Notes under the pieces: generated by a model
The model's database searches: none
What the model saw: the letters and a program-made list of their open reading frames with translations, nothing else
Told to the model about the DNA's origin: nothing
Program-made: the position numbers and the translations under genes
Part shown: piece by piece, positions 2,048 through 30,435 of the stretch
Position numbering within the stretch: the first letter of the stretch is position 1
Layout: the number at the start of each line of letters is the position of its first letter
Source: Haplodiscus bocki
Taxonomy: Eukaryota
Length of the DNA: 64,000 nt
Assembly: GCA_965655095.1 (NCBI GenBank)
Contig: OZ296648.1
Span: 46,004,001-46,068,000 of the forward strand
Direction: 5' to 3'

Positions 2048-2518
2048 GAAATCGAACTTTTAATTTATTATAAAGGTTTATTCGAATCAATAACAGATTA
2101 AAGAAAGATTGTATAATTAATATTTTTAATCAAAAATGATGTTGATTTTTTAATTGAATGTGGTAATATAAGAAAATGATATTAGTCGTCTATGTTTAGA
2201 GTGTAAAAATATAATAATGGAGCACAAAGATGAATATTTAGTTTTATTTTAAAAAAGAAGTAGAAGAAACTATTACTGAAAGAATTTTGAATAGATAAAT
2301 GGAAGACTATTTTTCAACGATGTTTGAAGATGTTAGACGAGAAAGATCGTTGGTATAATCAATGTCTTTAACAAATCCAGATAAATTAAAACAATCCAAA
2401 ATTACAGACGTTGAATTATCATCCATAAAAGATCTTGCTCTTGGAAAATTAGATAGACAGAGAGTATTAAAGAATACATTGTTGTATCATTAAGAGAATA
2501 ATATTTTCTGTTTAATGA

Positions 2519-3141
2519 ATGGCTAATCCAAATTTGAAAAAAAAAGATCTAACCTTTTTAAAAGTGACAACCGAAGGTGATGAAATTAAAGAATTAAAAA
2601 TTGAAACGGAAAAACATGATCTTGAAAAAATATCAAAATCACTCAAAATTGATAATGAATGTTTTAGGAAGAAATTTAAATCCTCAAATAAAAAGAAAGA
2701 TATATTAATTATCACAGAAATTTTCATGAGATCTGCTTCCACAAAAAACTCTAGTACAATAGCATTATTAGCAAGATTAAATCAAAAAGCAGGTGTTGTA
2801 ATAACAACTAGTACAGCTTTGTTAACTAGTAGTGCTATTTTAATCACGAGTGAATACATATCAAAATTGAAGATACGATGTACAAGATTACAAGATTGGA
2901 TTAAAGTAATTAATTTTGGATATGAGAGAACTTTGAACCAATTGATGGTAGATAAAAAACTGACAAAAAGCATGGGAATTGAAAAAGATAAAAAAAAAAC
3001 CAATATATAGGCAAAACATCTGATATTATGAAAAATACTCAATTCAAGATTGAGGATCTATTTGGTCATAGTATAAGTAAAGATTTTGTTTCACCAGAAC
3101 AAATAACTAAACATACTACTTTATTAGCCGCAATATTGTGA
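2519..3141 (+). pseudogene. Polinton protein with hydrophobic hairpin (membrane-associated?), copy 1
   Basis: Charged N-terminus, then hydrophobic ILIITEI...AGVVITTSTALLTSSAILIT. Homologues at 5643 and at 24165-24775(-). Confidence 0.55.
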
Positions 3142-3411
3142 ATGAAAACTTTTGTATAAGAATAAATAAATTTTTATCTAGAAAGAAAAAATATTTCGAT
3201 TTTCAACTGAGCGCTCCTCCTGAATGTGATTTTTAGTATTTAAATAATTCAAGTTGAAAACAATCTTTTTGCTTGGGAGGTCGTCATTATTCTAAGAAAA
3301 ACAACATAATTGAATACGATGAGAGAAATCCTTAAACAAACAAAATTGTTGAAAATTTCAAGGGTATTTGTGGTATTTTTGGCGGTAACGAATCACAATT
3401 TTTTACTAAGT

Positions 3412-3845
3412 AAAAGACACGAGGAGAAGATTTCATGGAGCAAGGAAATGTAAAAGTAAACACTGTTCACCTATGTCAAATTCAGCATGATTTGATCTAA
3501 ATAGTAATGGCGATAAACTTAAATTACATGATGTTTGACATAATCCAAAAGGCAAATGTCAGAAACAATTAATATTTGCTGTTTACTACTAAAGAGTTTA
3601 AACTCGAAGGAGCAGGGTTCAAAACTACAATGAGGATAATATTCAAAAGAAGTCAAAAAGCATGGAACTCTTTTCTTAAACCAGCAGTAAACATTCTAGC
3701 ACCTGTTTTTGGTATGGCTGTCGCAGCAAAAAGCAAAATTCCACAAGTTTGTCAAGCTACTCCGAAAATTTTGAAAAATATAACAGGAGGTACGATTTTA
3801 AGCTTAACTGACATGTGTGGGGATGGATTGAGAAAAGCAAGGTGA
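3412..3845 (+). pseudogene. Putative core protein with adenain cleavage motifs, copy 1
   Basis: Cys/His N-terminus, then KLEGAG|F and MCGDG|L, matching (M/L/I)xGx-G. Homologue at 23484-23910(-). Confidence 0.55.
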
Positions 3846-3873
3846 ACTAATTCAAATAAAGTTTGGTAATAAA

Positions 3874-4477
3874 ATGGATGAAATGGTTAAAGAAATGTTG
3901 TGAATGTGGAATTGAAAAATTAAATGAAGAGGTTTGTTTTAGGAAGTTTAGTCAAAAAAAACCTTCGTATACAATGTAGAAATATCGAGCAAAAAGAATG
4001 AAGAATAAATGATTATGAAAAAGTAAATCATTATATGAGAACTATAGTGAAAAAAAATAAAGAAAAAAAACAGATTTTCGTGATAAGAGAAGAAAAGAAA
4101 CAGATGTTAAATTTCGTTTAATTAATGATACAAGATGTCGTTACATCATGCACTGAATGGTAAATCGAAATTTTCTTCTACAAAAGATGTTTTGGGTATA
4201 GTTATTGTTACTTATAGAGAATGGATCGAGTTTCGATTTACACCTGAAATGAATTGGAGAAATATCGATATGGATCATGTCAGACCAATCGTTTGATGTA
4301 TACAATAGCGGAGAAAAGAAACAACATTTTAATTGGAAAAACACTCAACCATTACAAAAAGATTTTTATTTTCAAAAAGGAACTGAACTTAGATTTTTTG
4401 ATTATCAACTAGAACTTGTTGAAGCATATCAATTTATCAAAATAAATGAAGATGGATCAAACGAAGATTTTCATTGA
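3874..4477 (+). pseudogene. EndoVII/HNH-like nuclease with N-terminal Zn ribbon, copy 1
   Basis: KCCECG N-terminus, then EMNWRNIDMDHVRP / SFDV...HFNWKNTQPL...QKG. Confidence 0.65.
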
Positions 4478-5300
4478 TGACATATAGTAAACCTCCTGAT
4501 AAAATTTATGAAACTAATAAAATAGTATATGTTCACTTTGATGAAACATGGAGCATTGATTTAGCTGAAATGATTGAATATAAGGTTTCAAACAATATAG
4601 GTTTTGGGTAGATATTCATAATTATTGATACTTTTAGTAAAAATACTTGGACTATTCCTCTAAAAAGATCAAAATGCTCGAAAAAACTAATGAATTTTCA
4701 AATTTTACATCTACATCAGAACGAAGACCTATAAGAATAGAAATGGATGGGGGAGAGGATATTCAAATTTCTGTTTTTCAAAACTTTTTCAAAGGTATTT
4801 TTATACAACATTTTTCAGGATTTTCTGATAAAATCCTGTATTGCTGAAAGAGTCACTAGAACGATAGGGAATTTTTTTTGAAAAACCAGTGTTTGAAAAA
4901 GGGAATGCCGATTGGATAACCGAACTTCAGTCTATCATCAAACAATATATTATCACAATTCACCATTCAATGGAAAAGACTCCATTTCAAGCTAGTAAAA
5001 ACGCAAAATTAGACGTAGTATTTTCCAATCTTCAAGATCGAAGAAATAGAAAAAAACCAAAATTTAGATTAGGACATTTATTTCGTACATCTTATATTCA
5101 AAACGTGTTCTCGAGAAGTGAGAGTAGAATTTATATCTATGAGCTTTTTAGGAAAATCGAAGTCATTCATTATACTATACCATCATATAGAAGCATCTCT
5201 TGGCCAGAGCGATAGAAACAAAACTTAAAAAGATCACCAAAATTAACCTTAGAAGAATATATTTGAGTCAAGACAGAACTAAAACTATTTCAAACAAAAT
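4446..5300 (+). pseudogene. Retroviral-like (rve) integrase, copy 1
   Basis: WSIDL (D1), IIDTFSK, RIEMDGGE (D2), IAERVTRTI (E), IHHSMEKTP, PKFRLG. Contains stops and frameshifts. Confidence 0.9.
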
Positions 5301-5642
5301 AATCCCTTTTAAATGGAATTAACTGAAGACCAAAAGATTTGAAAATATGGTGTAAAACGTGGAAATTGAAATCGAAAAACCCTTCTTTCATTTTAATTTT
5401 AATTTACTTGTACTTCATGTGGTATAACGTTATATAACGAAAAAACAAACTTAGTAAATTTTCGAAAAAAAAGAATTTTGTCATCAGATTGAAATATGCC
5501 GGACACGAAATTTTTTGTTTTTCTATAGATGGTTATAAAAAAGCTCAATGTAAAGATCTTGCTCTTGGAAAATTAGATAGACAGAGAGTTTTAAAGAATA
5601 CATTCTTGTATCATTAAGAGAATAATATTTTCTGTTTGATAA

Positions 5643-6262
5643 ATGGCTAACCCAAATTTGAAAAATGAAGATCTAAGCTTTTTAAAAGTGACAACCGAAG
5701 GTGATGAATTTAAAGAATTAAAAATTAAAACGAAAAAACATGATCTTGAAAAAATATCAAAATCAATCAAAATTGATAATGAATGTTTTAGGAAGAAATT
5801 TAAATCCTCAAATAAAAAGAAAGATATATTGATTATCACAGAAATTTTCATGAGATCTGCTTCCACAAAAAACTCTAGTACAATAGCAATATTAGCAATA
5901 TTAAATCAAAAAGCAGGTGTTGTAATAACAACTAGTTCAGCTTCGTTAACTAGTAGTGCTATTTTAATCACGAGTGAATACATATCAAAATTGAAGATAC
6001 GATGTACAAGATTACAAGATTGGATTAAAGTAATTAATTTTGGATATGAGAGAACTTTGAACCAATTGATGGTAGATAAAAAACTGACAAAAAGCATGGG
6101 AATTGAAAAAGATAAAAAAACCAATATTGAGGCAAAACATCTGGTATTATGAAAAATACTCAAGTCAAGATTGAGGATCTATTTGGTGATAGTATAAGTA
6201 AAGATTCTGTTTCACCAAAACAAATAACTAAACATACTAATTTAATAGCCACAATAATGTGA
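5643..6262 (+). pseudogene. Polinton hydrophobic-hairpin protein, copy 2
   Basis: Duplicate of 2519-3141. Confidence 0.55.
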
Positions 6263-6534
6263 ATGAAAACTTTTGTATAAAAACAAATAAATTTATATCT
6301 AGAAGGAAAAAAGATTTCGATTTTCAACTGAGTGCTCCTCCTGAATGTGATTTTTAGTAATTAAATGAATTCAAGTTGAAAACAATCTTTTTGCTTGGGA
6401 GGTTGTCATTATTCTAAGAAAAACAACAAAATTGAATACGATGAGAGAAATCCTTAAACAAACAAAATTGTTGAAAAATTCAAGGGTATTTGTAGTATTT
6501 TTGGCGGTAACGAATCACAATTTTTTACTAAGTG

Positions 6535-6967
6535 AAAGACACGAGGAGAAGATTTCATGGAGCAAGGAAATGTAAAAGTAAACACTGTTCACCTATGTCA
6601 AATTCAGCATGATTTGATCTAAATAGTAATGGCGATAAACTTAAATTACATGATGTTTGACATAATCCAAAAGGCAAATGTCAGAAACAATTAATATTTG
6701 CTGTTTACTACTAAAGAGTTTAAACTCGAAGGAGCAGGGTTCAAAACTACAATGAGGATAATATTCAAAAGAAGTCAAAAAGCATGGAACTCTTTTCTTA
6801 AACCAGCAGTAAACATTCTAGCACCTGTTTTTGGTATGGCTGTCGCAGCAAAAAGCAAAATTCCACAAGTTTGTCAAGCTACTCCAAAAATTTTGAAAAA
6901 TATAACAGGAGGTACGATTTTAAGCTTAACTGACATGTGTGGGGATGGATTGAGAAAAGCAAGGTGA
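6535..6967 (+). pseudogene. Putative core protein, copy 2
   Basis: Identical 89-aa ORF at 6698-6967. Confidence 0.55.
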
Positions 6968-6995
6968 ACTAATTCAAATAAAGTTTGGTAATAAA

Positions 6996-7597
6996 ATGGA
7001 TGAAATGGTTAAAAAAATGTTGTGAATGTGGAATTGAAAATTTAAATGAAGAGTTTTGTTTTAGGAAGTTTAGTAAAAAAAAACGTTTGCATACAATGTA
7101 GAAAAATCGAGCAAAAGAATGAAGAATAATTGATTACGAAAAAGTAAATCATTATATGAGTACTATAGCGAGAAAAATAAAGAAAAAAAACAGTTTTTCG
7201 TGATAAGAGAAGAAGAGAAACAGATGTTAAATTTCGTTTAATTAATGATACAAGATGTCGTTACATCATGCACTGAATGGTAAATCGAAATTTTCTTCTA
7301 CAAAAGATGTTTTGGGTATAGTTATTGTTACTTATAGAGAATGGATCGAGTTTCGAATTACACCTGAAATGAATTGGAGAAATATCGATATGGATCATGT
7401 CAGACCAATCGTTTGATGTATACAATAGTGGAGAAAAGAAACAACATTTTAATTGGAAAAACACTCAACCATTACAAAAAGATTTTTATTTTCAAAAAGG
7501 AACTGAACTTAGATTTTTTGATTATCAACTAGAACTTGTTGAAGCATATCAATTTATCAAAATAAATGAAGATGGATCAAACGAAGATTTTCATTGA
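6996..7597 (+). pseudogene. EndoVII/HNH-like nuclease, copy 2
   Basis: Duplicate of 3874-4477. Confidence 0.65.
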
Positions 7598-8420
7598 TGA
7601 CATATAGTAAACCTCCTGATAAAAATTATGAAACTAATAAAATAGTATATGTTCACTTTGATGAAACATGGAGCATTGATTTAGCCGATATGATTGAATA
7701 TAAGGTTTCAAACAATATAGGTTTTGGGTAGATATTCATAATTATTGATACTTTTAGTAAAAATACTTGGACTATTCCTCTAAAAAGATAAAAATGCTCG
7801 AAAAAACTAATGAATTTTCAAATTTTACATCTACATCAGAACGAAGACCTATAAGAAGAGAAATGGATGGGGGAGAGGATATTCAAATTTCTGTTTTTCA
7901 AAATTTTTTCAAAGGTATTTTTATACAACATTTTTCAGGATTTTCTGATAAAATCCTGTATTGCTGAAAGAGTCACTAGAACGATAGGGAATTTTTTTTG
8001 AAAAACCAGTGTTTGAAAAAGGGAATGCCGATTGGATAACCGAACTTCAGTCTATCATCAAACAATATATTATCACAATTCACCATTCAATGGAAAAGAC
8101 TCCATTTCAAGCTAGTAAAAACGCAAAATTAGACGTAGTATTTTCCAATCTTCAAGATCGAAGAAATAGAAAAAAACCAAAATTTAGATTAGGACATTTA
8201 TTTCGTACATCTTATATTCAAAACGTGTTCTCGAGAAGTGAGAGTAGAATTTATATCTATGAGCTTTTTAGGAAAATCGAAGTCATTCATTATACTATAC
8301 CATCATATAGAAGCATCTCTTGGCCAGAGCGATAGAAACAAAACTTAAAAAGATCACCAAAATTAACCTTAGAAGAATATATTTGAGTCAAGACAGAACT
8401 AAAACTATTTCAAACAAAAT
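7566..8420 (+). pseudogene. rve integrase, copy 2
   Basis: WSIDLADM etc.; same disabling lesions as copy 1. Confidence 0.9.
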
Positions 8421-8432
8421 AATCCCTTTTAA

Positions 8433-9740
8433 ATGGAATTAACTGAAGACCAAAAGATTTGAAAATATGGTGTAAAACGTGGAAATTGAAATCGAAAAAC
8501 CCTTCTTTCATTTGAATTTTAATTTACTTGTACTTCATGTGGTATAACGTTATATAACGAAAAAACAAACTTAGTAAATTTTCGAAAAAAAAAGAATTTT
8601 GTCATCAGATTGAAATATGCCGGACACGAAATTTTTTGTTTTTCTATAAATGGTTAAAAAATAAATCAATGTAAAGATTTTGATGAAAGATATGAAGCTT
8701 TATCCACATTGAAGAATTAAAAAAATGAAAATTAAAAGAACTTTTCCGAAAAATATGAAGCTGTTAATTTAAATCCTGATTTAGAACAAAATTAGTACTC
8801 TAGAACAGTTGAAGGTATATATAAAATTGGACATGATTCTATTAGAGTATTCAAATGGTTAGCTTATTATGATAGACTTTTTGATGAAAATAAAATACCT
8901 TTTGATTTGATGGCGAGAATTTAAACTTGTCTAACTGAAATATCTTAATGATAAAAATTACGTAGAAGTAAAAAGCAAATGAAATTTTAATCATCCCACT
9001 GAAAATATTATATTAAGACTTAGAGTACAACCAAAATCTTTGAGAACCCAATATCAAGTTCAAGTAAACACTCAAATTAGGAAAAATCTGAAAGTAATTA
9101 AAAAAACTACTGATGAATTGATAGTTAAAAAGCATCCTAAAAAGAAACAGCTAATTTTTCAACAACGTAAAAAATAATCTACCAGATTGTCCTTTCTATA
9201 ACCGAAATAGTTGGCTTGAGTTTGATAAAAGATGGTTTTGTCAAATTTGTATATATATCATTACTAAACAAAAACATCAAATAGATTAAAAAATCTCATA
9301 GACAACATCTGAATTTTTCAACTAGATTACCATACGCTGATAAAAAGAATAAAGAGATTTATTTTAAAATGGTTAAAACTAAGTATGGTTCAACAGTAGA
9401 AATGCTTAACAAAATACAATTTTGAAATTAAAAACAAAATTGAAATTTTATCAAAATATAGATAATTATTATGAAGAAAGGAATTATCATAGGCAAAATG
9501 GTACTTTTCATTTCGCAGAACCTCCTTCCGACAGAAACGTTAACGGTGTTAGTAAAATTTATCATGAAGTATTCCTGTTAATGAAATTTTTACAAAAAAA
9601 ACCTCAGGTTAAAAATATGAAAAATAAATACTATGGTTTGTATTATGCTGTTCTTAAAATAGAAGTGGAAAAGAGAATATGGAAGATAAAAAAGATTAAG
9701 ATATAAAACCTTTTTATGATAATAATATTATGCCAAATTA
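8433..9740 (+). pseudogene. Two conserved hypothetical Polinton genes between integrase and pPolB
   Basis: EQN*YSRTVEGIYKIGH, LRTQYQVQ, FSTRLP and SKIYHEV..MKFLQKKPQV match 20037-21350(-) in element 2. Confidence 0.65.
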
Positions 9741-12800: not shown

Positions 12801-13462
12801 AAATTATAAACAACAATCAAAATTAGTTTTCAACAGAAGTCATAAATACTACACATATTTTGATAGTTATAATTTCAAACAAAACGAGGTTCTTATGCAC
12901 AAGCGTATTTACTTAGGGTTTGCTGTGTTAGAGTTGGTTAAAGTGTTGATGTATGAAACATAATATAATAAATTAACACCCTATTTTGGAGAAAAACTAT
13001 ACAAATACTTTATATGGATAATTTATGATGAGTGTGGATACAGAGGTTACTATATAAGACTTTAAAAATCTGGAAAACTTATTTGATTTTGATTTCAGCA
13101 ATATGAGTGAAAAAATTGAACTATTTAGTAAAAGAAACAAAAAATTTATGAGAAAACGTAAAATAGAGACTCCTAAAAATATTTCGGTTGATGAAGTTGT
13201 TTGTCTGAGAAGTAAAATGTATGCATTTAAATGTGCAGATGATAGTAAAGAAACTGAAACTTGTTTGTAAATCGTATTGAAAAAATACTAAATTTGACGA
13301 ATAAAAAAGTTGTTTGATGGTTAAGAATATCATTGAGAATGTGATATTTATATAATTTGATCTCCTAATCATGAAATATACCCCCAACGAGTAGAAAAAG
13401 CTATACTAACTGCATTTGATAATAAACGATGTTATGAAAATAATGTTAAACGTAAATTTTAG
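9842..13462 (+). pseudogene. Protein-primed family B DNA polymerase with EndoVII-like insertion and N-terminal Zn finger
   Basis: GWRFD, DKYCFTWS, IYADF, RDHCHL...YRGPAH, RFIDSYRFL, IRGGIS, FYGTTMENVR, IYLGFAVLEL, LYMD, CLRSKMYA, LTAFDNKR. Many frameshifts. Confidence 0.9.
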
Positions 13463-13481
13463 GGATGAAGATTATAATTGT

Positions 13482-13753
13482 ATGATAATGTATACTCATT
13501 CAGAAATTTCAACAAAAACTCCACTAGCCAATTTTCTAATCAGTGGAAAAGTAAAACTAACATTAAAATTTTTTTCAAGTATACCAAATATAAACAGAAG
13601 TTTCTAGTTTTCATTCCCAATACCGATAATGCATTGACAATTTTTTGAATAATATCACAAAATTGAGAATATGTAAATTTTTTTTGTAATGATGGAAATA
13701 ATCCTTTTCATAGAGCTGGTAGGAAATGGTTTTTAGACAATCAATCACCCTAG
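13482..13753 (+). pseudogene. Small hypothetical gene, homologous to 31695-32178
   Basis: IPIMH*QFF*IISQN*EYVNFFCNDGNNPFHRAGRKW versus FLWRNFFLNIANKRDYVNNCCSRPLNSFDRHCHEW. Confidence 0.5.
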
Positions 13754-13870
13754 AAAGTCTATGAAAAACTGTACGTAGTTTTATAATAAAAAATTGTTAA
13801 AACTTCATACCAGTATAAAAACCCAAACTTTCAAGTTCAACTCATACGAATTAAAAACAAAACCAATACA

Positions 13871-14235
13871 CATGTGCATTGACATACCTATAGTAAACTG
13901 AAAGCCCATCGGGAGTCCGTTCCTCTAAGAGTTTCCACACCAAGGATCATCCTTTTCAAGAACTGTGCATTTGGTGATTATCCGCCTACGGCATGTAAGA
14001 TATAACAAAGACTGGGGATACGTAATAAGAAGTGAACCCCAACACTTCAGCTATGCCTTAACTTCGTCAATGCTATATCAACTAATCCATAGGAGACGGA
14101 ATAGGAAGAGAAAAACTAGTGTATATATACATGGAAAGTATTGTCAACAAAGCTAGCATGTATATTTTGTGTTTTGTCGACATATTTGGTAGTGGTGATT
14201 TTTTCAGCCTCGCTTACAATGTAAAAGTGCACGTG
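13871..14235 (+). ncRNA. Candidate structured non-coding RNA of element 1
   Basis: Closing helix CATGTGCATT/AGTGCACGTG, several nested helices and a possible pseudoknot. G-U pairs favour the + strand. T-run at 14241-14245. Confidence 0.4.
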
Positions 14236-14327
14236 CAATATTTTTGTTAGTTCTATGTTTATGTAATTGTAAATATTTATAGCGAAATTTTTCATGTGTT
14301 GTGGAGAAAAAATAAGTCAGTTAAAAC

Positions 14328-14556
14328 GTTTTTTCTCATTCCTGTGTACACCCATTGGTAAAACCATTTGAAAATTTTTTGCAAAATCGTTTTTTTATTC
14401 TTGTGTACACCTTTTGATAGAACTATTTAAAACTTTTCTGCAAAAATGATTTTTTTTATTCTTGTGTATCCCCATTGATAATTTTTTTTTAATTTTTGCG
14501 TCTGCGTCCTTTTAGCCGTACAACTTGGCCGTACAATTTGGCTGGACAACGTAGCT
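14328..14556. repeat. Subterminal repeats of element 1
   Basis: Three ~60-bp units containing ATTC(C/T)TGTGTA(C/T)(A/C)CC, then three 13-bp GCCGTACAA(C/T)TTG-like units. Confidence 0.8.
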
Positions 14557-14723
14557 GTTGAATTTAATGTGGCTCGCGCGGCTGGCCTCATTTTTTTGTT
14601 TATATACTACTACTATAATCTTCCGACAAAAGCCGTTATGCCTCTCATTCGTTCATCGAAATGTTTTCAAAACCCGATTTTATTACAACACCAAACGGCC
14701 GCCATACTATCGCGGGTTTACAG

Positions 14724-14890
14724 CCATAGTCAAACATGCTGACCATGCTATGACATGGTATGATTATGGTGATTCATACTCACCATGGTTTGATCATGGC
14801 AAGATCATGGCATGGTCATCTTGACAAATAGCATGATCATGGTATGGCCGTCATGGAAAATAGCCTTACCATGTCATGGTGACCATAGTC
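14724..14890. repeat. CATG-rich interspersed repeat
   Basis: Dense CATG/CCATGG/TGATCA palindromes; the same texture recurs at 15320-15413, 33513-33544 and 36810-37225. Confidence 0.6.
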
Positions 14891-15032
14891 AATTTTATAA
14901 CGTAATCCGAACGCTATTTATCCATCCAACTTTGTTAAATATTGCCCAGGTGGTATTCAGTTACTTTTTAAAGTGGAATGTAAAGAAAAATTTACCAACA
15001 GAATTTACCCGAACAGAATTTACCAAAAATGA

Positions 15033-15065: not shown

Positions 15066-15413
15066 AAATTTCTAAATTACCAAAAATAAGAAAAACCTGT
15101 ATTATATGTTATATTGAAACCGTTTTCCAATAAGAACTTGCTGTTTGGTATTTACTGAAGAAAACTCTAAGATTACCTGGAGTATTTTTTGTTCAATTTT
15201 GCTCACTCGCCACCCGAATATCGTGAGTTCCTCTAAAGCCAGTCAATTGTGCTTTATAATGGTATATGACACGAACTATTTGAGAAACATGGATAAAGTC
15301 CCTTTTTTTAAAAAAAAAACATGCAAAACAGGATGATCATACCATGATTATGGTATGAATCATGGAAAACATAGTAATCATACCATGATCATGCCATGAA
15401 TCATGGCGACCAT

Positions 15414-15553
15414 AATAATATAGGATATTCCGGATAATACCAGTAGCTCCTCACTATCGCTCGTCCCACTGATATTATCCGACAAACTCCACGCTCGCTC
15501 GTCACTTCGTTCCTCGCAGGCTTCCTTCCAGTCAGCCTCTTGCTCATATTATT
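15414..15553 (+). repeat. Left TIR of element 2
   Basis: AATAATATAGGATATTCCGGATAATACCAGTAG...TTCCAGTCAGCCTCTTGCTCATATTATT matches the reverse complement of 33373-33512 with scattered mismatches. Confidence 0.95.
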
Positions 15554-15585
15554 GGCTGCACCACTTACTTATGGTGATTTTCAAA

Positions 15586-15960
15586 ATCTGTGATCTCCAT
15601 GTCCAGAGCTTTCCAACGACGCATCACATGTACGTCTATCTGAAAGTTTTATAACCTCTACAAGTTTAAAGTTTAGGGTTTGAGATGATGTAACTTTACC
15701 TGTGTACGTCCGATCAACCTGATATTCACCATCTGTGATCTCCTAGTCAAGAGCTTTCAAATGATTTATCACATGTACGTTTATCTCACATTTTGTAATC
15801 TCTACATGTTTAAGATGTAGGGTTTGAGAGGGCATAAATTCACGCGAGTACGTCCGATCAAACTGATATTCATCATCTGTGATCTCCTTGTCATGAGCTT
15901 TCCAATAATGTATCACAAAAACATTTGTTTTAAAATTTTATAATCTCTACATAGTTAAAG
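15586..15960. repeat. Subterminal tandem repeat, ~145-bp unit x2.6
   Basis: ATCTGTGATCTCC at 15586, 15731 and 15875. Confidence 0.9.
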
Positions 15961-16149
15961 TACGTTTCCAACCGTTCCTATAACATAGCACCCAGTACAA
16001 ATTCCATATTTTTCCACATTCATAAAACATGTGAAGATTACGAAATCAGTGAATTTTTGAGCTACAGAAAAGTATAAAAAACCATGAGAAAGGTCTTGAA
16101 CAATGCCAATCAATGAATATAATTTCGCAAACACCAACTGAAACCTTAC

Positions 16150-16405
16150 TTTTGAAAAACCCAAAAAACCCTAAAAATAACCCTGAAGCTTAGTATGTCA
16201 ATGGAAAATTTTTTGATAAATTTGACAAATTATATATCGTTGAAAAGGTCTTCAAAAGTTCTTTTCAATGAAAATATTTTGGAGATCGTTGACTGAAACC
16301 ATACCATCAGAAATACCCAAAAACCCTGAAATTAACCCCGAAACTTTGTATGTCAATAAAAAATTTTGAATAATCTAGGAGTGTTATATATTGTTGAAAA
16401 GGTAA
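16150..16405. repeat. Subterminal direct repeat, ~155-bp period x2
   Basis: AAACCCT.AAA.TAACCC.GAA.CTT.GTATGTCAAT...TTATATAT.GTTGAAAAGGT at ~16166 and 16321. Confidence 0.8.
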
Positions 16406-16481
16406 GTAAATGTAGAACTCGAAAGTGATATTTTCGAATACATCAATTGGTCCTTATACATTTAAAAGTTAACAAATGTGT

Positions 16482-19400
16482 TTAAACGATTATATACTTA
16501 GGAAGCATATGACCAAACTCGCTTGGAGGTTCCCGTTTTAATTCAATTAGATTAGTTGAGAATTCCTTCTTCAGGTTGACTAGTTTATCACAATTATCAC
16601 ATAGAATATCTTTTTCACAATCAATACAATCTTTCATTTTTTGTAGAAATACAACTCCTTCACTAAATGATTTTTTCGAACTTAAAGGTACTTTAGCATT
16701 TAATTTATCACCATCTGCCATATTAAAACATTCTTTTCTATCTATTTTTTCACTAACAGAAGTGAAGCTTTTGAAGGTTTTGTGCTCGCCGATAACACCA
16801 AACATTTTCAGTTAAACAATATTTTTCCGGAGCTGGAAATAACCCACACCAAATGCCTCCTTGTCCATAATCGTTTTTACCTTGTAATCTATTCACACCA
16901 ACTAGTCCAGCCTTCTCTAATTTATCCCAATTTTTGTTTTCAATGTACAATGGGTCAGAATCTGTATAATAAACATCATTAGTATAAAATCCAACAACCG
17001 CGTGCACAAAATCGGTCATTTTTCGTTTACTGTTTGATAAAACGAAAGCACCTAGGTGAAGAGGCATGGTGTTCACTTTCTTAACTTCATCTTGTAAGCC
17101 TTCATCATCTTTCATTTTCACGATATAATTTCCAAAAATAGTTTTCTGAAAATCTAAAACGCGTTCATCATATTCAGTCATCATCCAATAATCAGATTTT
17201 CATCGGTAACTTTCTTCAATGCCTTTACGTATTTGCTCACCGTGTAAAGAATTCATAATTAATTTAACTAACAACTGCATAAAATCAATTTTTTCATCTT
17301 TTTGTTTTTGTCGTAGTTCAAAAAATTTATCAATTACTTGTTTAAAAGGAGATACTTTAAAATTTTCTCAAAAAGTAACGACTTCATAAATTCCTATTAC
17401 TTCTCCACCAATTTTAACAATTTTCTGGATATCAACGGATGTTAAAGTATCAATAATATAACCTTTGCGCATGGGGTTAATTTCCATTTTCTTTACTCGT
17501 TCTACAACTGGAATATGTTGAACGATAAGATTTTTAGGATTATAATACTTAATTGTTGAAACTGCACTTCCTTGAGTGAAAGTTGGATTATTGAATTTGT
17601 TAACGAGGTCATCATTCATATCTTTCGTGTAAGCATAACCAGTTTCTTTTTGCCATCGCTTTGCAATATCTCGCTTAAGAGAAAGCAGTACAGAGAACGT
17701 CATTTTTAACATAAACTAACCATTCATCTTTTTATCCTTATAATCATTATAATCAATTTCATCATGATTCATTTCGGTTTCTAATGATTCTTTTTGTAGT
17801 TTAAAAGTTCTTCCTAATTTCTTTAAGGAATAATTTAAATGAGTCATACCACATCTAAAATGGAAATGTTGAGGAATTTGTTTTTTTTTCAATATAACCA
17901 TTAAAAACTTTTCTTTCAGTAATACCCTTGCCGTTTTTATCACGCGAAAAGCGGGATANNNNNNNNNNNNNNNNNNNNNNNNNNNNNNNNNNNNNNNNNN
18001 NNNNNNNNNNNNNNNNNNNNNNNNNNNNNNNNNNNNNNNNNNNNNNNNNNNNNNNNNNNNNNNNNNNNNNNNNNNNNNNNNNNNNNNNNNNNNNNNNNNN
18101 NNNNNNTAATTACTGTTCAGATTTTGATGAAAATTGGTGAGTAGGGAGGCAATGATCATATGAAGACCGAGTTCAAAGTTGGGCGTGATCCGGATTGAAA
18201 TCCGGATCTGAGATCCGGATCAATGTTTCTCATAAACTACAGGTCGGATTTTGTTAGTGGGAAGATATAGCCAGTCATTCAGTGCAGTAGTGGTTCATAA
18301 TTAAATAAAACTTATTCCAACGATGACTTCCGCAAGGTTGGACGAGTGGTATATATGCGAGTCTCGGGAGCTGGAGATTGCGGGTTCGATCATCGGTGAC
18401 AACAGATAATTTTTCATTTTTGTATTTTGTTACTGTTCTGATCCGCGGGACAATTACAAAAATTTCGTGGTCACCGGGGATTCAACACAGAATCTTCATC
18501 TCCGGAGTCTCCCGTCTGAACCACTGCTATACACTGCCACAACATGACCAGAGAAATGGTCGTTTATAAATCTGTGTGGACGCAAAGACATAAAAAGGAT
18601 CAGCAATCTGAAATATCAACGACTGGGTTACAATCCAGTATATCGGCGGGTCCAAGGGCTTTCGCGGGATCTGCCCTCTCCGAGTCCCATTTTTTGCCTT
18701 GTTTATTATATTAACAATTCTTTTATCACAAGACAAATTATTCAAAACAATCCAGGTATCAAAACCAGATCCGTTGTCAGCATGAAGTTGTAAATTTTAT
18801 TCAAGAATTTTTTTTATTATCTTTACGTTCTTTTCCTTTAAGTTTCAAACAGAAATCTAAAGATTTTTCAAAACATTTATCAACATCAAAGACAATAGTG
18901 TCCTTTTTACATTTCTGTTTTTCATCTTGTGTTAAATTACGATTATATCTACCAGCTAGTTTACTTAATCGGTAAAAACAAAATACATGTTGTCCAGCCC
19001 TATCTGCTTTATGAGTTTCAAGATCGTAAACGACAAAATTAGTCAAATGTGATTCAATTTTTTTAGGAGTGTATATATATTCAAAATGAGATTTAACGTT
19101 TTCTTCCGTTATAAAATTATCAACTTTTTTAAAACTATATTTCAATTCTTTGATAGCTTGATTAAATTTAACACCTTCTGATTTCCATATTAAACAAGAA
19201 TGATTATTGTATGAAAATAAACCAATCTTTGTTTCTGTAGCTGATTATGAAAAGATTCTTTCACCATCATAATATGCTAAATTCAAATTGTTGGCTCTAC
19301 AAAAAGGTTGAATTCCAGCTTTAGTCTTTATATTTGATCGTCTTTTTTCATTTCGGATGAAGTCTAAATATTGTTCTTTATAATCTTCACCTGTTAAGAA

Positions 19401-19986
19401 ATTAATATATTCAACGAAACAATAGCCTTTAGTTGGTATAAAACAATTATTACCTCGATATTGAATAAATTCATATTTGAAGTCACAAACATTGCCGTAT
19501 TGACTTTTGTTTACTTTATTAAATTGAGGAGTTTTGATTATGTAAAAATAACCATTAAAATTAGCATCTTCCGCATCATAACTTTCATCAATTGCGTTAA
19601 TATAAGATTCATAATCATCAATATTGGTAAATCTAATATGAGTTTGTCGAATTTGATCACAAACTTTTAAACAACCAACCATTTCGAATTCACCAGTATA
19701 GTCTAACAATACTTCTTGTTTAATTTCATGCAAATTTTCATCAAAAACTTCTATTTTATTTACTTCTCCTAAAACACTTTCTTATTTAAGGGATTGTTAG
19801 CGTATTTAATTCTAATTAATAGATTTTCTACTTGTTTAGTTTTATCAATATTTTCAATTTTCTTTTTTTTTCAGATTTAATTTTGTTTAATAACAATTTC
19901 TGAGTATCAGCCATTTTAATTTTTCGTTCAGTTCTTCTTTTTCTACTTCTCGTTAATTTATTATTCTCGTTTTTCATTAATATCAT
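16482..19986 (-). pseudogene. Protein-primed family B DNA polymerase of a different clade from element 1 (interrupted, internally deleted)
   Basis: VVYDLET (ExoI), LHADNGSGFD (ExoII), SLKKLGRTF, YVKNDV (ExoIII), KLIMNSLHG (motif B), PLHLGAFVLSNSKR, YYTDSD (motif C), GKNDYG. Confidence 0.9.
17939..18703 (-). mobile_element. Non-autonomous DINE-1/HINE (Helentron-type) element, copy A, inside pPolB (contains an N gap)
   Basis: Reverse complement of 21744-22416. AACAAG end, subterminal inverted repeat ATC(C/A)CGCGAAA. Inserted in a T-run with no TSD; removing it restores NIIKNGKG. Confidence 0.75.
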
Positions 19987-20036
19987 TTATATAGCAAGAA
20001 ATATTTGAAATTTTTTTTATCAGATCTCAAATTTCT

Positions 20037-21350
20037 CTACCTCAAAAATGTGTCACGAGGGTTATGATTAGGTATAAAAAAATCATTAAATTTAATATAA
20101 ACATTTTCATACTGATTACCTACAATTTCTTTTTCATGTCTATTTTTAATAACAGTATAATATAAATCATAATAATTAATATTCATACTCCTAACTTCAG
20201 GCTTAGTTTGTAGATATTTCATTACCATCAATACTTCATGGTTAATTTTACTAGTTCCTTGAACGTTTTTAGCAAAAGTATCTCCATCCATCCTAATATT
20301 CATATTATCATAATATTTACTTATAATTTTATGAAATTTCAATTTTGTTTCTCCTTTTAATTCTCGTAATTTATTACTCATATCTTCTGTTGAATTATAT
20401 GTTGTGTTAACCACAGAATAAAATTTTTTTATTATCTATTTATTAGCTAATGGTAGTCTAGTAGAAAAATTATGATCTTGTCCGAGAACTTTTATATCAA
20501 ATTGATGTTTTAGTTTGTTAACAATCTATTCACAATTACAGAAAAAAGTAGCCTTTATCAAACTCTAAAAAATTGTTTTGTTTACAAGTAGGACAATTAG
20601 ATGGCCTAAATTAGGTTGTTGATAACTTGATTGTTTCTTTTTAGGATAATGTTTAACTTCTAATTTTCCTTTATTTTCAACTACTTTTTGCTTTCTCCTT
20701 ATCCGAGTCTCATTTTGAACTTGATATTGAGTTCTCAAAGGAGTTGGAGGATCTCTTTTTCGTAATATTATTTTTTCAGGAGGATGAATTCTATATAGAG
20801 GATCTTTTACTTCAACTTAATATTCTCCATTAAAATATTTCATTATTTAAAACTGTCAAAACACTAGACATTAAATCAAAGTAATTCAAATTAGCATAAT
20901 AAGACCTATAATATTAAATTAACCATTTCATTAATGTAATATATAATGTCCGATTTTGTAAACACCACTCGCTGTTCTTGAATAATAATTTTGTTCAAAA
21001 TCAGGATTTTCTAACATAACTTTATGTTTCTCCATCAAGATTTTGGTTATTTTTAATTTTTTATTTTTTAGTATTGGTAAAACTTCATATATTGTATTAT
21101 AATCATTACCTTCATACTATTGATGTACTTCTATGCAAATACAAATAAATTTTTACTCAGCATATTTTAATCGATTGATAAAATTAATTTTTTTCAGTTG
21201 TATTTTAGAGAGCCCTTGTTTTCTTTTGGTAAGTTGAAACCACACGAAAAACAAGTGAACACGTATTAGTATGGAAGAAGAGTATTTCGATTGCAGGGTT
21301 GACAACTTTTTCCATTTTTCTCAAATATTTCATTTTTAGTTAATTCCATT
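20037..21350 (-). pseudogene. Two conserved hypothetical Polinton genes
   Basis: Homologous and collinear with 8433-9740(+). Confidence 0.65.
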
Positions 21351-21359
21351 TGTTGTTTA

Positions 21360-22888
21360 TTATAATATTGAATTAAATTTAGTTTTTTCATAACTTTATT
21401 ATTTTCTCCTCAGGATAATATTTTTGGTAGCAATAGGTTTTCATTACATCTCTCGGTTAAATAGTCAATTCTATATGATGGTATGCGGTCAAGTATGATT
21501 TCTGTTATTGTGTATAATTTATAGCTGTAATGTGTACTGTCTCCTCTGCTAAAGACTTTCTTAATATCAACTGTACGAACTAATTGTCCCAGTTTAAAAT
21601 TTGGTTTTCCAATTTCTCTATTGTTTTTGGGATTTGAATAGACTTCTTTTTCATTTGATTTTTTAAAAGCCTGAAAATGAGTCTTTTTAATACTATGGTG
21701 AAGTGAATTATTATATTTCTTAAAGACAAATGGTAGTTCTATTAACAAAGAAGCCAAAAAATGGCACTCTGAGAGCGCAGATCCCGCGAAAACCCTTAGA
21801 ACCTCCGATATCCTGGATAGTAACCCAGTCGTTGCTATTTCAGATTGCTGATCCTTTTTATGTCTTTGCGTCCACACAGATTTATAAACGACCATTTCTC
21901 TGGTCATGTTGTGGCAGTGTATAGCAGTGGTTCAGACGGGAGACTCCGGAGATGAAGATTCTGTGTTGAATCCCCGGTGACCACGAAATTTTTGTAATTG
22001 TCCCGCGGATCAGAACAGTAACAAAATACAAAATTGAAAAATTATCTGTTGTCACCGATGATCGAACCCGCAATCTCCATCTCCCGAGACTCGCATATAT
22101 ACCACTCGTCCAACCTTGCGGAAGTCATCGTCGGAATAAGTTTTATTTATTTATGAACCACTACTGCACTGAATGACTGGCTATATCTTCCCACTAACAA
22201 AATCCGACCTGTAGTTTATGAGAAACATTGATCCGGATCTCAGATCCGGATTTCAATCCGGATCACGCCCAACTTTGAACTCGGTCTTCATATGATCATT
22301 GCCTCCCTACTCACCAACTTTCATCAAAATCCGACCAGTAGTTTATGACGAATCCTGCTAACAAACAAGCAAACAAACACACGAAGGCGATTGCAAACTC
22401 CCGATTTTTGCGGGATAATTAGCGTATCCTTTTTCAAACACTGTTTTTTTTGGTAAATTACGTACAGTTTTGATAACTCGTTCAGCAATTGAAGGACTTT
22501 ATCTGTGAATTGTGAAAAATGTTGTGTATATTTAGTTTTGGAAAATTTTGAAATATAATATTATAAAATTCAGTACCTCTATCAGAATCCATTTTGATAG
22601 GCTTTCGTTTTGATGTTGTTAAAATATTTGAAAATTCATTTGTGATAGTTTGACTATATTTATTTTTAAGTGGTATACACCAGAGAAATTTTGAGAAATT
22701 ATCGATTATAGTAAGTATGTATCTAAATCTTGTGTTATTTGAAATTTTATAATCCGAGAAATCTGCTAAATCAATACCCAGATTTCATCAATATGATTAA
22801 ATAAGGTTTTATTAGTTTTAAAATTTCTCTTAGGTGGTTTAGAAAATATCTCATCAATGAACGTTCTCGTTAAATCATTCTTGATCAT
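21360..22888 (-). pseudogene. rve integrase, interrupted by HINE copy B
   Basis: FIDEIFSKPP, HIDEIW, IIDNFSK, IAERVIKTV, YNNSLHHSIKKT, FKLGQLVRT, FSRGD. Confidence 0.9.
21744..22416 (+). mobile_element. Non-autonomous DINE-1/HINE-like element, copy B (673 bp)
   Basis: Starts AACAAAG with stem-loops GCCA-AAAAA-TGGC and CTCT-G-AGAG. subTIR ATCCCGCGAAAA (21781) pairs with TTTTTGCGGGAT (22405-22416). (ACAA)n microsatellite near the end. No TSD. Confidence 0.75.
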
Positions 22889-23452
22889 TTAATTAGATAA
22901 ATTGATACGCCTTTATGAATTCTAATTGATAATCTGAAAAAATAAATTCCGTAACCTTTTGCAGATGAGCATTTTTTAATGAGGGCTGAGTATTTTTCCA
23001 ATGGAATGCTTCCTTCAATTCGTCATTTTAGATACATCAAATAAACAAAAAGGCTTGACGAGGTCAGTTTCTGTGTTATCCCTTGTCATATCAGGTGACA
23101 TTTGCCATATCCACTTTTTACAAGTCTCAATATTAATACCTAAATTTTCTTTCGTTGAAGAAGGTTTTGATGTTCTTTTTAGAGCTTTTGAAATTCGACT
23201 TCTTGTTTTACGAATTAATTGAAAATTATTATCTGTTTAATGTCAATTCTTTTTTTAATCGTTAATTATTTCCTTGTTTTGTTAAGAATACATTTTCATT
23301 TTTCCTTTCTTTTCAGATTTATATACCCTTTGTTTAATTTTTGCTCACTGTGCACATTCGTTTTTCAATTTTTGATTGATGTTTCTAAAATAAAAGTCTG
23401 TTAATATTTTTAAAACTCTACAATCAGAGCATTTCTTCATCAAATCATCCAT
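22870..23452 (-). pseudogene. EndoVII/HNH-like nuclease with N-terminal Zn ribbon
   Basis: MDDLMKKCSDC..., RSRISKALK, DNTETDLVKPFCLFDV, AFHWKNTQP. Orthologous to 3874-4477. Confidence 0.65.
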
Positions 23453-23483
23453 TTTAATTTATAAACTTTATTTGAAATAATTT

Positions 23484-23910
23484 CACATTACTTTTAATCT
23501 CAAACCACGTCAGTGCATGTCAGTGAGACTCCAAATTTTTCGTCCAGATATACTTTTCAATATATTAGTTGTTGCTGCTCCAACTTGAGGATTTTTAGAT
23601 TTTGCTCCGACGGCCATACCAATTACCGGTGCCAGAGTGTCGATTGTTGGTTTTAAAACTTTATTCCAAGCTCATTGAGATCCCTTGAATATCTTTTTCA
23701 TAGTATTTTTAAGCCCATTAACTTCTAATTGAAATTGTCTAGGACTAAAGTTTTTTGCTTTTGGCAATTACATTTAAGATTATGGCACATATCATGTAAC
23801 TTCAACACAGTACATTTTTTATTCAAATTACACCATGTTGAATTACTCATATCTGATCGATGTCCGCGTTCGCATTTTGCACTTCTCACAAAATCTTCTG
23901 CTTTAGTCAT
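23484..23910 (-). pseudogene. Putative core protein
   Basis: KLHDMCHNLKCNCQKQ...AWNKVLKPTIDTLAPVIGMAVGAKSKNPQVG...SLTDMH*RGLRL. Confidence 0.55.
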
Positions 23911-24069
23911 TTACTTAGAGAAAATTTGGTTTTTAATACGACCGCAATTACTACAAGTTCCTTTGATAATTTTTACAACTTTTTTAATCTTATGGCTTTT
24001 CTTTTCATATTGATTTATACTATTAGTGTTACTATGATGTCTTCCACCAACACACCAAGTCTTTGTCAT
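23911..24069 (-). CDS. Small Zn-ribbon protein (52 aa)
   Basis: MTKTWCVGGRH...IKGTCSNCGRIKNQIFSK. Decayed homologues near 3240-3411 and 6366-6534. Confidence 0.6.
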   Translation of the reverse strand: MTKTWCVGGRHHSNTNSINQYEKKSHKIKKVVKIIKGTCSNCGRIKNQIFSK

Positions 24070-24164
24070 TTTTTGACTAAAAATCATATTCAGGAGGAAC
24101 ACTCGGTTGATACTTAGTATTGTTTTTCTTTTTAGGTTAAAAAATTTAAATTTAATATTCGTAT

Positions 24165-24775
24165 TTATATTCACATTATTTTGGCTCAAAAAAGTATTAA
24201 GTATAGTTATTTGTTCTTGACTAAAATTATCTTTACTTATAACATCACCAAAAATATCTCCCGCCTTAGAACTAGTATTTTTCAAAAGTCCTTTTCTTTT
24301 ATCAATGTAATGATTATAAATCTTCTTCAATTCTTGTGATTCCTTTTCATCAATTTTTTTATCTACCATCGACTGTTTCAAAGTCTTTTCATATGACAAA
24401 GTAATTACTTTTATCCAAACTTTCAATTTTGTAATTTTAATTTTGAAATATATTCATTAGTGATTAAGATGGCAATACTGGTTAATAAAACGGTACTACT
24501 TGAAAAAATATTACCTGCACCAGGATTAATCAAACCCATCTTTGAAGTACCTATTATCGATACTGACCTAATCAAAGTTTCAGTGACATTTAATATTACT
24601 TTCTTTTTATTTAAATTTTTATACTTTTTTTATAATATTCATTATCAATTTTAAGACTCTTTAGAATATTTTCATGATCGTGTTTTTCCGTTTGATTTTC
24701 AAGTTTCTTTTCATCATCTCTCGTTTTTATTTTTAACAGTTCTGTTTCGTTGCTTATATTCGGGTATGTACTCAT
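24165..24775 (-). pseudogene. Polinton hydrophobic-hairpin protein
   Basis: EKHDHE..LKSLKIDNE...GTSKMGLINPGAGNIFSSSTVLLTSIAILITNEYISK...KQSMVDKKIDEKE. Confidence 0.55.
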
Positions 24776-24996
24776 TTATTATTTAGAAATTGTTCTTCTA
24801 ACAAATCCATTGCAACAATCGCTTTCAAGGTGCGTTGTCTATGTATTTTATCCAAAGCAAGGTCTTTTACAATATTTATCTCATCACCTGTATATTTACT
24901 TTGTTTTAACATATCTGGTTCTATTAACGATAGTAATAATATTATCGATCATTCATATCTTATATCTTCAAACAAGTTTGAGAAGTACTGTTCCAT

Positions 24997-25236
24997 TTAT
25001 TTATTCAGAAATCTTTCAATGATTACTTCTTCTTTTTTTATATAGTTAAGGTATTGTTTATATTCTTCTAACAAATTAAATTTAAATTCTAAAGATAGCA
25101 GATTAATAACAATTTTACTAAAACCAACTTCTTTTAATAATTTTTTATTATCTTTAATTGAAAACATTAATGAAACTATTTTTCTATAATCAAGTATTGA
25201 TTCAAACAAATCTTTAAAATAATTAACATTATCCAT
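24997..25236 (-). CDS. Hypothetical Polinton protein (79 aa)
   Basis: Intact ORF; decayed homologue at ~2050-2298(+) (LFESITD*RKIV). Confidence 0.6.
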   Translation of the reverse strand: MDNVNYFKDLFESILDYRKIVSLMFSIKDNKKLLKEVGFSKIVINLLSLEFKFNLLEEYKQYLNYIKKEEVIIERFLNK

Positions 25237-25261
25237 ATAAGACTCACAATTGTATTTGTTT

Positions 25262-26588
25262 TTAATATACAGAATGTGTTAATGTTACCTTACTAAAACA
25301 CATATCAGCATGGGCACTATCTATCTTATCAAATATTAATTTAATACCATAGTTCTCTACAATGAAATCTAAATTTAAAAATGTCCAATCAGTTGAAGTT
25401 TCACTATATTGAGTATTTTTAGCGTTAGCATATTGACTATTCCAAAAGTTATCGTCCAATAACAATTGAATTCTAAAGCGTCCCATTGATTTAGTACCAC
25501 CCGCTGAAAATCTGTTACAATAGAATAGTATATTACTAATTTGAATGATGTCTGTTCGTTCGAAAGAAACAAAAACGTTTTCTCCGTTATTATTTGAACT
25601 TGTCTCTATATACATAAAACTATCATCAATCGATAACAAGCTTTTTGCTCTAGAATCGCCCGTTAGACAGTTTGTCTTGGTTGATTTTATAAAGTTTTGT
25701 ATTTTACCATTGTTCTTTTTATCATTACATTTAATATTCCATCGTTGTGATAGGTATCCTCCTATGTTAGGAGTTTTAAGATTTGTTGTTTCAGTTATTT
25801 GTGTTTTATCATGTTTAGTAAGATTATATGTTTCATTTCCAACAGATACTATGAGATAGTTTTGTAGTGTTTGATTAAATCTTAAAATACTATATTTATC
25901 TAAATCACAATCGATATATTTTTTATTTGCTAATTCATTATCTGAATTGAGATTCCTTTTAACAGTGATACTATCTAAATTTGTTAATTTATTATCGTTG
26001 AAATCATTATTTTGATTATTTTTTACCAAATCTATTTCTTCATTATAAAACGACAATCCCATGTCTCTTCTGTTTCTTTTATTATCACTATGAAATTGAT
26101 CTACATAAGCTTTTGTTATTACTTCATTGTCATTTCCAGCTGGTTAATTCAAAGTAATACTATTTATATTAGTTAAATTAATTTTATTAAAATCGTTATC
26201 TTGATTAATTCTAACTAACGAAGATTCGTCTGCAGTATTATCAACATATAACTTAGCTGTTAAATGAGAATCAATTTGAGGTAAATGATTAACTTGAATA
26301 GATCTTGCGTTGGTAATATTTCTACCATTCAGATCTATATGTGCGGTGTTTTTCAATAGACTTGGATCATTGAATAAATTATCAACATAAAATTTTACTA
26401 CAAGCTTCTCTAATACTAAAAGGATCTGGTAAATTTTTAATTCTGTATTGATTTTTTAAGTCAATGTCTTCTTCTATATTAGATTCTATATAAATAGTTC
26501 TCAGATAAGGTTTTTGTACAAATGGACTAGTATCAATTTTGTTATCAGATTTATTTGAGTTACTATTACCAAATACATTTATCGGCAT
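25262..26588 (-). pseudogene. Putative fibre/spike-like virion protein (three fragments)
   Basis: Repeats ending TAKLYVD, ITKAYVD and ANKKYID, preceded by N-D-F-N-x-x-x-(L/I)-T-N; beta-rich C-terminal domain. Confidence 0.55.
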
Positions 26589-30246: not shown

Positions 30247-30258
30247 ATTTAATATTGT

Positions 30259-30435
30259 GAAATTATTTGAAATGACTTTTTAATTAATGTCTCTTACGAA
30301 TTTTTTTTATATGAGTTCTGGATTTCAAACGACTTTTAAAAAAAACCGTTCAATACATAAATTATCACATATATCACAATGTAGTCTATATTCACAATCT
30401 TCACAATAAATAACTTGTTGATTATCACTATTCAT
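30259..30435 (-). pseudogene. Small Zn-finger gene
   Basis: YCEDCEYRLHCDICD..., then after a frameshift LKSRTH. Confidence 0.45.

Follow-up and report, generated by a model that had tools for sequence, protein, structure and literature searches.

Polintons are regarded as viruses akin to adenoviruses, and the closest described counterparts of the locus analyzed here are the adenovirus VA RNAs I and II, likewise non-coding RNAs of a linear, protein-primed dsDNA virus lineage. According to one account, VA RNA carries box A in its terminal stem and box B in a stem, has a pseudoknotted central domain, ends in U4, and acts as a decoy for Dicer and exportin-5 (PMC7589676). Type 2 promoters, which serve tRNA, 7SL, VA and EBER genes, have two published consensus boxes, TRGYnnARBGG near +12 and GGTTCRAnYCY near +54 (PMC7279448). 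On a term search, the adintovirus paper refers neither to non-coding RNA nor to VA RNA or polymerase III (PMC8502044). Among the listed open-access papers we found no Polinton ncRNA, and the words of the core motif described below were also unmatched; provisionally, such an RNA is absent from print.

The window studied here is a 64,000-nt stretch of the 1.5-Gb Haplodiscus bocki genome (G000:C1:46004001-46068000), positions being counted from its first letter. An initial annotation had placed a structured plus-strand RNA of about 365 nt at 13871-14245, downstream of a Polinton pPolB gene, and tentatively likened it to VA RNA. The words it named are all where it put them, and the island is indeed less AT-rich than its surroundings (GC 38.7% vs 25.5-25.8% in the flanks), with no frame that carries a coding signal. 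The central idea of a Polinton ncRNA analogous to VA RNA has been strengthened, whereas the strand, the ends, the terminator and most of the helices had to be replaced. Nor is the island simply downstream of pPolB; it lies inside a TIR, and the left arm holds a second copy. The island almost certainly contains a structured RNA gene, on the minus strand from about 14097 to 13859, with 14100-14275 being upstream flank and not RNA. Its features are as follows.

13440..14611, no strand: right TIR of Polinton element 1, 1,175 nt, 89.5% identical to the left arm
14130..14275, minus strand: conserved upstream block with repeated palindromic words of the GTCGAC and CACGTG types
14120..14129, minus strand: TATA-like word at -32 to -23, from motif counts
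13859..14097, minus strand: predicted RNA gene of 239 nt; motifs place its start at a conserved G and its end at the first T4 run
14079..14089, minus strand: box A position, +9 to +19; the window copy departs from the box at two places
14028..14038, minus strand: B-box-like word GGTTCACTTCT, +60 to +70, overlapping the core hairpin; putative promoter role
13853..13862, minus strand: T4-G-T5 run, predicted Pol III terminator

The left TIR arm of element 1, which carries the second island copy, lies outside the window (G000:C1:45998765-45999922); the element has an AGTAGT-type terminus, and its 6-nt flanks agree at five of six positions. In all eight mapped elements the island sits within the TIR, one copy per arm, about 340-750 nt from the terminus, and many island copies form inverted pairs 8-37 kb apart. 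A DNA search of the genome, in which 40 of 3,458 candidates were scored, returned copies at 81-94%, and exact matches to a 15-nt core word number 2,597, compared with one for the reversed control. Among 29 close copies, chosen by similarity to a query reaching ~45 nt past both island edges, pairwise identity reaches 0.75-0.9 across ~13825-14260 and falls to 0.3-0.5 on either side. Eighty loci were sampled from the more than 2,597 copies in the genome, and at 54 of them a Polinton protein match lies within 1.5 kb, the probe set being one that may contain a few flanking non-Polinton frames. Flank DNA resembles that of mapped elements at 21 of the remaining 26, and two of the last five are known TIR arms, which leaves L042, L063 and L104 without an assigned context. 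A Polinton setting is thereby established for 77 of the 80 loci, and the pattern that a SINE or MITE would leave, dispersed solo copies with TSDs of their own, is not what we see.

The carriers are recognizable as Polintons by their TIRs and pPolB, with PF03175 in the polymerase of one of them, and their TIR termini are unrelated to each other. Three have the polymerase type of element 1, which matches none of three pPolB probes, and five have the other type. That the neighboring element 2 has no equivalent of the island, as the initial annotation had noted, is correct; the link it drew to polymerase type does not hold, since the gene occurs in elements of either pPolB type and element 2 lacks it despite sharing the type of the five carriers. 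The gene is therefore dispensable for some Polintons. Within the TIR, it is inverted and points outward in the young family B (L089-L108, L109-L111) and points inward in seven other mapped elements; the window copy, which is decayed, points into its element.

Some further observations concern these elements and their relatives. The RNA gene has also multiplied within Polinton-derived tandem arrays of 3.3 kb and 5 kb (L081; G000:C1:60239265-60259426). In L004/L005, and again in the window copy and L002, pair-breaking or loop-letter changes are common to both arms of one element, so that either defective copies were replicated or the arms were converted after insertion. Long-contig records P0001-P0091 hold many full-length pPolBs (1,190-1,320 aa) with ~80% and ~48% identity to a carrier's polymerase, and one main pPolB type scores no Pfam family. 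At 14340-14480, the TIR of element 1 contains ~60-nt repeats whose unit resembles the terminal sequence of the L109-111 and L115-117 carriers.

A protein-coding exon could in principle underlie the conserved island, and a stop-free minus frame of 145-174 codons does span it in three related copies (L009, L011, L012). Codon periodicity is, however, absent (p = 0.88), pN/pS lies between 0.77 and 0.98 whichever of the six frames is read, and the variants shared in the open minus frame comprise 9 silent and 28 replacing changes. Diverged families, moreover, differ by arbitrary indels of any length. We reject a coding exon, together with the 365-nt plus-strand RNA, as having next to no chance of being right.

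The window copy taken singly folds like its shuffles (z -0.4) and could not have carried a claim of structure: on neither strand did the 365-nt interval beat its shuffles (z -0.49 on plus, -0.41 on minus), and RNAalifold of 30 close copies on the plus strand gave -9.7 kcal/mol with no covariation term. Excess folding energy is found in young copies; values for family B run from -1.1 to -5.7, and one young copy scores -3.87 on the minus strand, with centroid and MFE structures identical, vs -1.14 on the plus strand. Across 55 copies (20 shuffles each), mean z is -1.33 in the sense of the gene and -0.48 in the opposite sense, with the minus strand better in 37. Helices of at least 6 bp kept in 75% of 26 copies number 156 on the minus strand (column shuffles, 104 +/- 13) and 83 on the plus strand (72 +/- 12). 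While the initial annotation had held that wobbles work only on the plus strand, the family result is the opposite: G-U cells outnumber A-C cells 118 to 27 in the minus sense, and 84 to 2 in P2, P3, P4 and S2, an excess for which only the minus strand accounts. The fold derived from the copies consists of the following parts.

13982..14096, minus strand: P1, 14096-14086 with 13992-13982, closing the 5' domain and bordering box A
14003..14075, minus strand: P2, 14075-71 with 14007-03, 92% paired, and within it P3, 14068-66 with 14012-10, 97% paired
14049..14057, minus strand: P4, a 3-bp hairpin with a variable loop, stacked directly on S1, 95% paired
14029..14048, minus strand: S1, the 6-bp core hairpin, 14048-43 with 14034-29; loop of 8 nt here, 9 in most copies
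14028-18, minus strand: 11-nt linker between S1 and the C run of S2
14013..14041, minus strand: S2, predicted pseudoknot stem, loop GGGG 14040-37 with CCCC 14017-14
13864..13969, minus strand: 3' domain with hairpins 13969-35 and 13934-895 and terminal hairpin 13893-64 (family A/B form; the hairpins of other families differ while lying in similar places)

Across families, compensatory changes beyond chance, the hallmark of a structured ncRNA, are found on the minus strand. An example is pair 14047/14030 in S1, which is A-U in 12 and U-A in 13 of 26 copies. A pattern allowing G or C at both of its places gave 162 matches (control 0), and among the 100 matches listed there were 83 G-C, 13 C-G and 4 mismatched, so that the pair occurs as all four Watson-Crick types across families. 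It also tops 32,640 column pairs by mutual information in 84 copies (z 13.8), the list below it being mostly family signal. The next pair, searched with a pattern that left the partner arm free, is compensated at 18 of the 20 loci fetched; pair 14046/14031 has two Watson-Crick forms in genome copies and four once metagenome rows are added. In P2/P3, one pair is G-C in 21 copies and A-U in 10, and G-U swaps are many.

In an unfitted alignment of 37 copies, the seven-helix model pairs 87.1% of 1,322 cells, compared with 38-59% for slid controls, and holds 57 two-sided changes where shuffles give 24.6 +/- 3.6; neither the count of pairs that changed on both sides (10) nor that of additional pair types (34) exceeds shuffles. 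P1 is misregistered in this alignment, with 70% of its cells paired and register shifts between families. An alignment of 84 copies fitted to the model, and hence leaning toward it, has two-sided change in 22 of 31 pairs, P1 reaching 77% paired with 9 of 10 pairs changed on both sides. We regard P2, P3, P4 and S1 as well supported and P1 as supported with shifts of register. Support is weak for a 4-bp UUAA helix that would create a three-way junction: 83% of its cells are paired, and one of its pairs is disrupted in 13 of 37 copies. By analogy with H-type pseudoknots, the UUAA stretch may instead be a linker lying in the groove of S1. The 3' half takes at least three forms between families, each with a stem just before the T run, and the cells of the terminal hairpin comprise 245 Watson-Crick, 53 G-U, 10 A-C and 52 other (30 copies).

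Of the helices proposed for the plus strand, CTGAAAG/TTTTCAG and CACCAA/TTGGTG turn out to rest on letters private to the window copy (13900, 13940, 13943), contigs from four sequencing runs having been used solely to tell such letters. The closing helix, TCCGTTCCT/AGGAGACGGA and GGCAT/ATGCC are lost in diverged families, and T4-T6 runs lie within the proposed plus-strand RNA itself (13952-56, 14199-14204). The interleaved TGGGG, GAAGTG, CCCCA and CACTTC had been read as a plus-strand pseudoknot, which would need a loop of 1-2 nt across a 5-bp stem. Here the GAAGTG/CACTTC stem is real and TGGGG/CCCCA near invariant, whereas the strand is not the one proposed: loops of 2, 2 and 11 nt on the minus strand give the usual H-type layout. 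S2 is complementary in 96% of cells with zero two-sided change, and as modeled from invariance and geometry this predicted stem is compatible with the copies.

For the ends of the gene, we relied on the 55 of 84 deduplicated copies in which both a start word and an anchor were found, the 29 copies that lacked one or the other being dropped. With the conserved G as its start and the first T4 run lying 130 nt or more beyond the anchor as its end, the gene is ~240 nt long in families A and B, 242-250 and 208-219 nt in others, and 208-261 nt in most copies; 40 of the 55 have no earlier T4 run. Box A was sought with a pattern that relaxes the published consensus slightly at position 2; a matching word falls between +7 and +24 in 39/55 copies and in 0/465 control windows. 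The TATA-like word occurs at -36 to -21 in 41 copies, starting at -32 in 26 of them, and in 85 of the 465 control windows. With the terminator, these counts fit the type 2 promoters of VA, EBER and 7SL genes (PMC7279448). GGTTCACTTCT is one conserved place off box B, lacking the conserved A; as it is equally invariant in the metagenome instances described below, one of which (L126) also contains a complete B box elsewhere, structure alone may account for the constancy of the word. The palindromic upstream block likely represents upstream promoter elements. The upstream regions of host U6 and 7SL genes have no clear block in common with the RNA gene, and a weak 10-mer at -46/-47 is shared by family B and one 7SL copy. 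Taken together, we think it quite probable that the RNA is a Pol III product. While inspecting these host genes, we also noted 5'-truncated U6 copies in a dispersed repeat family with shared flanks (L141-L145, L147), possibly a U6-derived repeat, and an array of over 20 7SL genes in tandem, spaced ~1.06 kb apart (G000:C4:50874250-50928780).

Set against the VA RNA sources (PMC7589676, PMC7279448), the predicted RNA resembles VA RNA in having box A at a terminal stem, a B-box-like word at about +60 within a hairpin, a predicted pseudoknotted center and a U4 end. It differs in its length of 210-250 nt vs ~160 nt, in a P1 that closes only the 5' half and is followed by further hairpins, in being encoded twice, in TIRs, and in its invertebrate-type host context. 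It has neither an Rfam match nor the GGGU/ACCC central stem (the partner strand is AUCCCC), and membership in the adenovirus VA RNA family was accordingly rejected. With EBER1/2 and 7SL-type genes it has in common a predicted type 2 internal promoter, a TATA-like word at about -30 and likely upstream factor sites (PMC7279448); there is no sequence or structural family match to them, and the upstream words differ.

The two arms of an element offer a separate view of the gene. Counting gap-distal differences in the eight mapped elements, arm divergence is 84/1,867 (0.045) in the gene and 59/1,348 (0.044) in the upstream 170 nt, compared with 485/4,956 (0.098) in the rest of the TIR (p = 1e-13); it is lower in the gene in 8/8 elements and in the upstream block in 7/8. 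The halving could reflect lower mutation under bound factors, conversion, or host selection. Part of the sharp conservation island may thus be mutational, an explanation that does not extend to the covariation across families.

We also searched metagenomes with a 19-letter pattern that leaves both variable pairs free. In 14 of its 15 matches the shared linker and C run follow outside the pattern, both free pairs being complementary in 12 of the 14, and a 45-nt hairpin/pseudoknot core is common to these 14; the fifteenth, within a bacterial-type coding region, was discarded as chance. By flank similarity the matches fall into eight groups. One (L135) comprises the entire Polinton RNA next to a pPolB fragment (127 bits), while the seven others keep only the closing stem, a P4 of widely differing length, S1, the linker and the C run. 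Judged by their make-up, these non-Polinton instances appear to be eukaryotic repeats. L126 is a tRNA-headed unit with a full B box before the core and a T run after it, L128 has two tandem cores, and L132 lies near a DDE_1 frame. In L125 and L127 the core is followed on the same strand, after 150-200 nt, by a twister-P1 match that stays below the gathering score (E 1e-10 and 8e-10). G-U pairs, twister and B box all agree with the minus-strand sense. Viral contigs gave 0 matches, or 2 and 4 that lacked the rest of the motif, with no pPolB relatives among them; prokaryote genomes gave two pattern matches, within coding regions and without stem or C run, and phage records chance matches only. 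Small and recurring outside Polintons, the core is a new RNA motif whatever its function. As a side observation, the L125 and L127 repeat units combine a recurring 20-nt word, the core and a twister ribozyme, and are retrozyme-like.

Our leading explanation, which we hold to be evenly poised, is a non-coding TIR gene, likely transcribed by Pol III; the product, an RNA of 210-250 nt whose core is a predicted pseudoknot, would act in trans as a decoy against host RNA defenses. TFIIIC would bind box A and the B-like word, the TATA-like word would help to set the start, polymerase III would stop at the T run, and two gene copies per element genome would double the dose. The long imperfect stems (P1-P3 and the terminal stems) would engage dsRNA-handling proteins, Dicer for example, the compact core would bind a conserved host factor or stabilize the RNA, and the product would serve as an abundant decoy, as adenovirus VA RNA and EBV EBERs do. 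Reasoning by analogy, we give even odds to decoy function being its main role. Retention of the gene with both pPolB types and unrelated TIR termini speaks for this explanation; the presence of the core in contexts without sign of a virus speaks against it. A structurally selected Pol III RNA across polymerase types suggests an infection cycle that manages host RNA defenses, and a short abundant RNA would provide a sensitive marker of Polinton activity.

The same Pol III RNA might owe its core to another function, the 45 nt forming a self-cleaving ribozyme of an undescribed class that processes the RNA or read-through transcripts. Like the Schistosoma hammerhead SINE-like elements, twister and pistol, the core is a small conserved fold in mobile elements, near invariant between free flanking stems and found in seven other flank contexts, in tandem copies, adjoining twister in two instances, and once within a unit that also bears a full B box and a T run. 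Its hairpin and UUAA linker resemble P1 of pistol, whose P2/P3 are absent from the core. Ribozymes commonly ride in retroelements, Pol III SINE-like repeats included (PMC6765202), and because the spread of the core among mobile repeats fits this pattern, we keep a ribozyme in consideration as an unlikely alternative: the core matches no known ribozyme model, an RNA whose gene sets its own start and end has no need of cleavage, and a neighboring twister makes a second cutter less needed. In a broader form that we put forward tentatively, the core could be an undescribed catalytic or factor-binding module of many eukaryotic mobile elements, which Polintons built into a Pol III gene in their TIRs; thousands of factor-bound, germline-transcribed copies would account for the halved decay rate, and the boldest version would again be a new self-cleaving ribozyme. 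Quite unlikely, in our estimate, is a nuclease-blocking knot like the flavivirus class 1 xrRNA, the main job of which would be to leave a stable 3' fragment. Here a variable hairpin is set without spacer on a hairpin of fixed length whose pyrimidine-G-rich loop is predicted to pair downstream, a layout that resembles P2/P3/Pk2 of subclass 1b (PMC7527734), and portability across unrelated RNAs would suit a stability module. Yet no strand between S1 and the next helix could form Pk1, no fixed base triple partner is evident and two S1 pairs vary freely, which, with the missing Rfam match, led us to reject membership in the class; furthermore, the P1 equivalent is weak, the core is locked in closing stems on both sides, its predicted distal pseudoknot has 4-5 bp vs 3, and the carrier is a DNA element.

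Other readings place the function in the DNA or the virion. TFIIIC/TFIIIB at both ends might act in cis as a chromatin barrier or open domain, the RNA being secondary. The gene's presence in both TIRs in either orientation would suit this, as would arm divergence halved alike over gene and upstream 170 nt, which lasting factor occupancy could cause; since compensating changes and wobble asymmetry in six helices would be left unexplained, along with the core outside Polintons, we consider it very unlikely. More doubtful still is a packaging or replication RNA on the virion motor or polymerase, for which phi29 prohead RNA is the parallel, or a structure in displaced ssDNA. The terminal position in a protein-primed genome would be apt, the loop-tail pairing could be intermolecular, and the linker has a self-complementary stretch; against this, the same RNA accompanies two unrelated polymerase types, is absent from element 2, is free in orientation and has its core in non-viral contexts, and Pol III signals point to RNA, not DNA. 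We disfavor, with little probability left to it, the insertion into an ancestral TIR of a passenger, such as a SINE of tRNA origin, that was thereafter copied with the element. Such an origin would explain a box A/B-type promoter and cores in repeat-like units, one of them tRNA-headed, but the copies are not scattered, being near Polinton proteins or within element-like flanks as described above, no tail follows the terminal stem, ARAGORN found nothing in 16 loci, and structure is kept while TIR flanks drop to 30-50% identity.

Further identities were examined and set aside. ARAGORN reported no cloverleaf in 16/16 loci, which removes tRNA and tmRNA, and Rfam returned nothing over the RNA at gathering; with E allowed up to 5 or 1, the matches were no more than chance would give. 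Known self-cleaving ribozymes were excluded in that no Rfam ribozyme model matches the core, the twister matches lying outside it. Group I introns, RNase P/MRP, telomerase RNA, 7SK, HDV and hatchet were dismissed as well, their order of elements being unlike that of the RNA and Rfam being silent.

Finally, the surroundings of the gene are themselves rich in repeats. Element 1 contains a ~3.1-kb tandem duplication at 2428-8682, the copies of which are 93-99% identical. The stretch separating elements 1 and 2 probably holds a small DNA transposon: a CT microsatellite is enclosed there by palindrome-rich repeat arms of very high copy number (14713-14900 and 15313-15413). Element 2 (15414-33512) is bounded by short TIRs (15414-15554 / 33373-33512); it contains three repeats of 144 nt (15575-15961) and, at 18108-18708 / 21743-22343, an internal inverted repeat of 601 nt (97%). 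An element at 39985-42734 and 43655-53551 has 478-nt perfect inverted arms, a 724-nt internal duplication and near-identical 2,864-nt tandem units.
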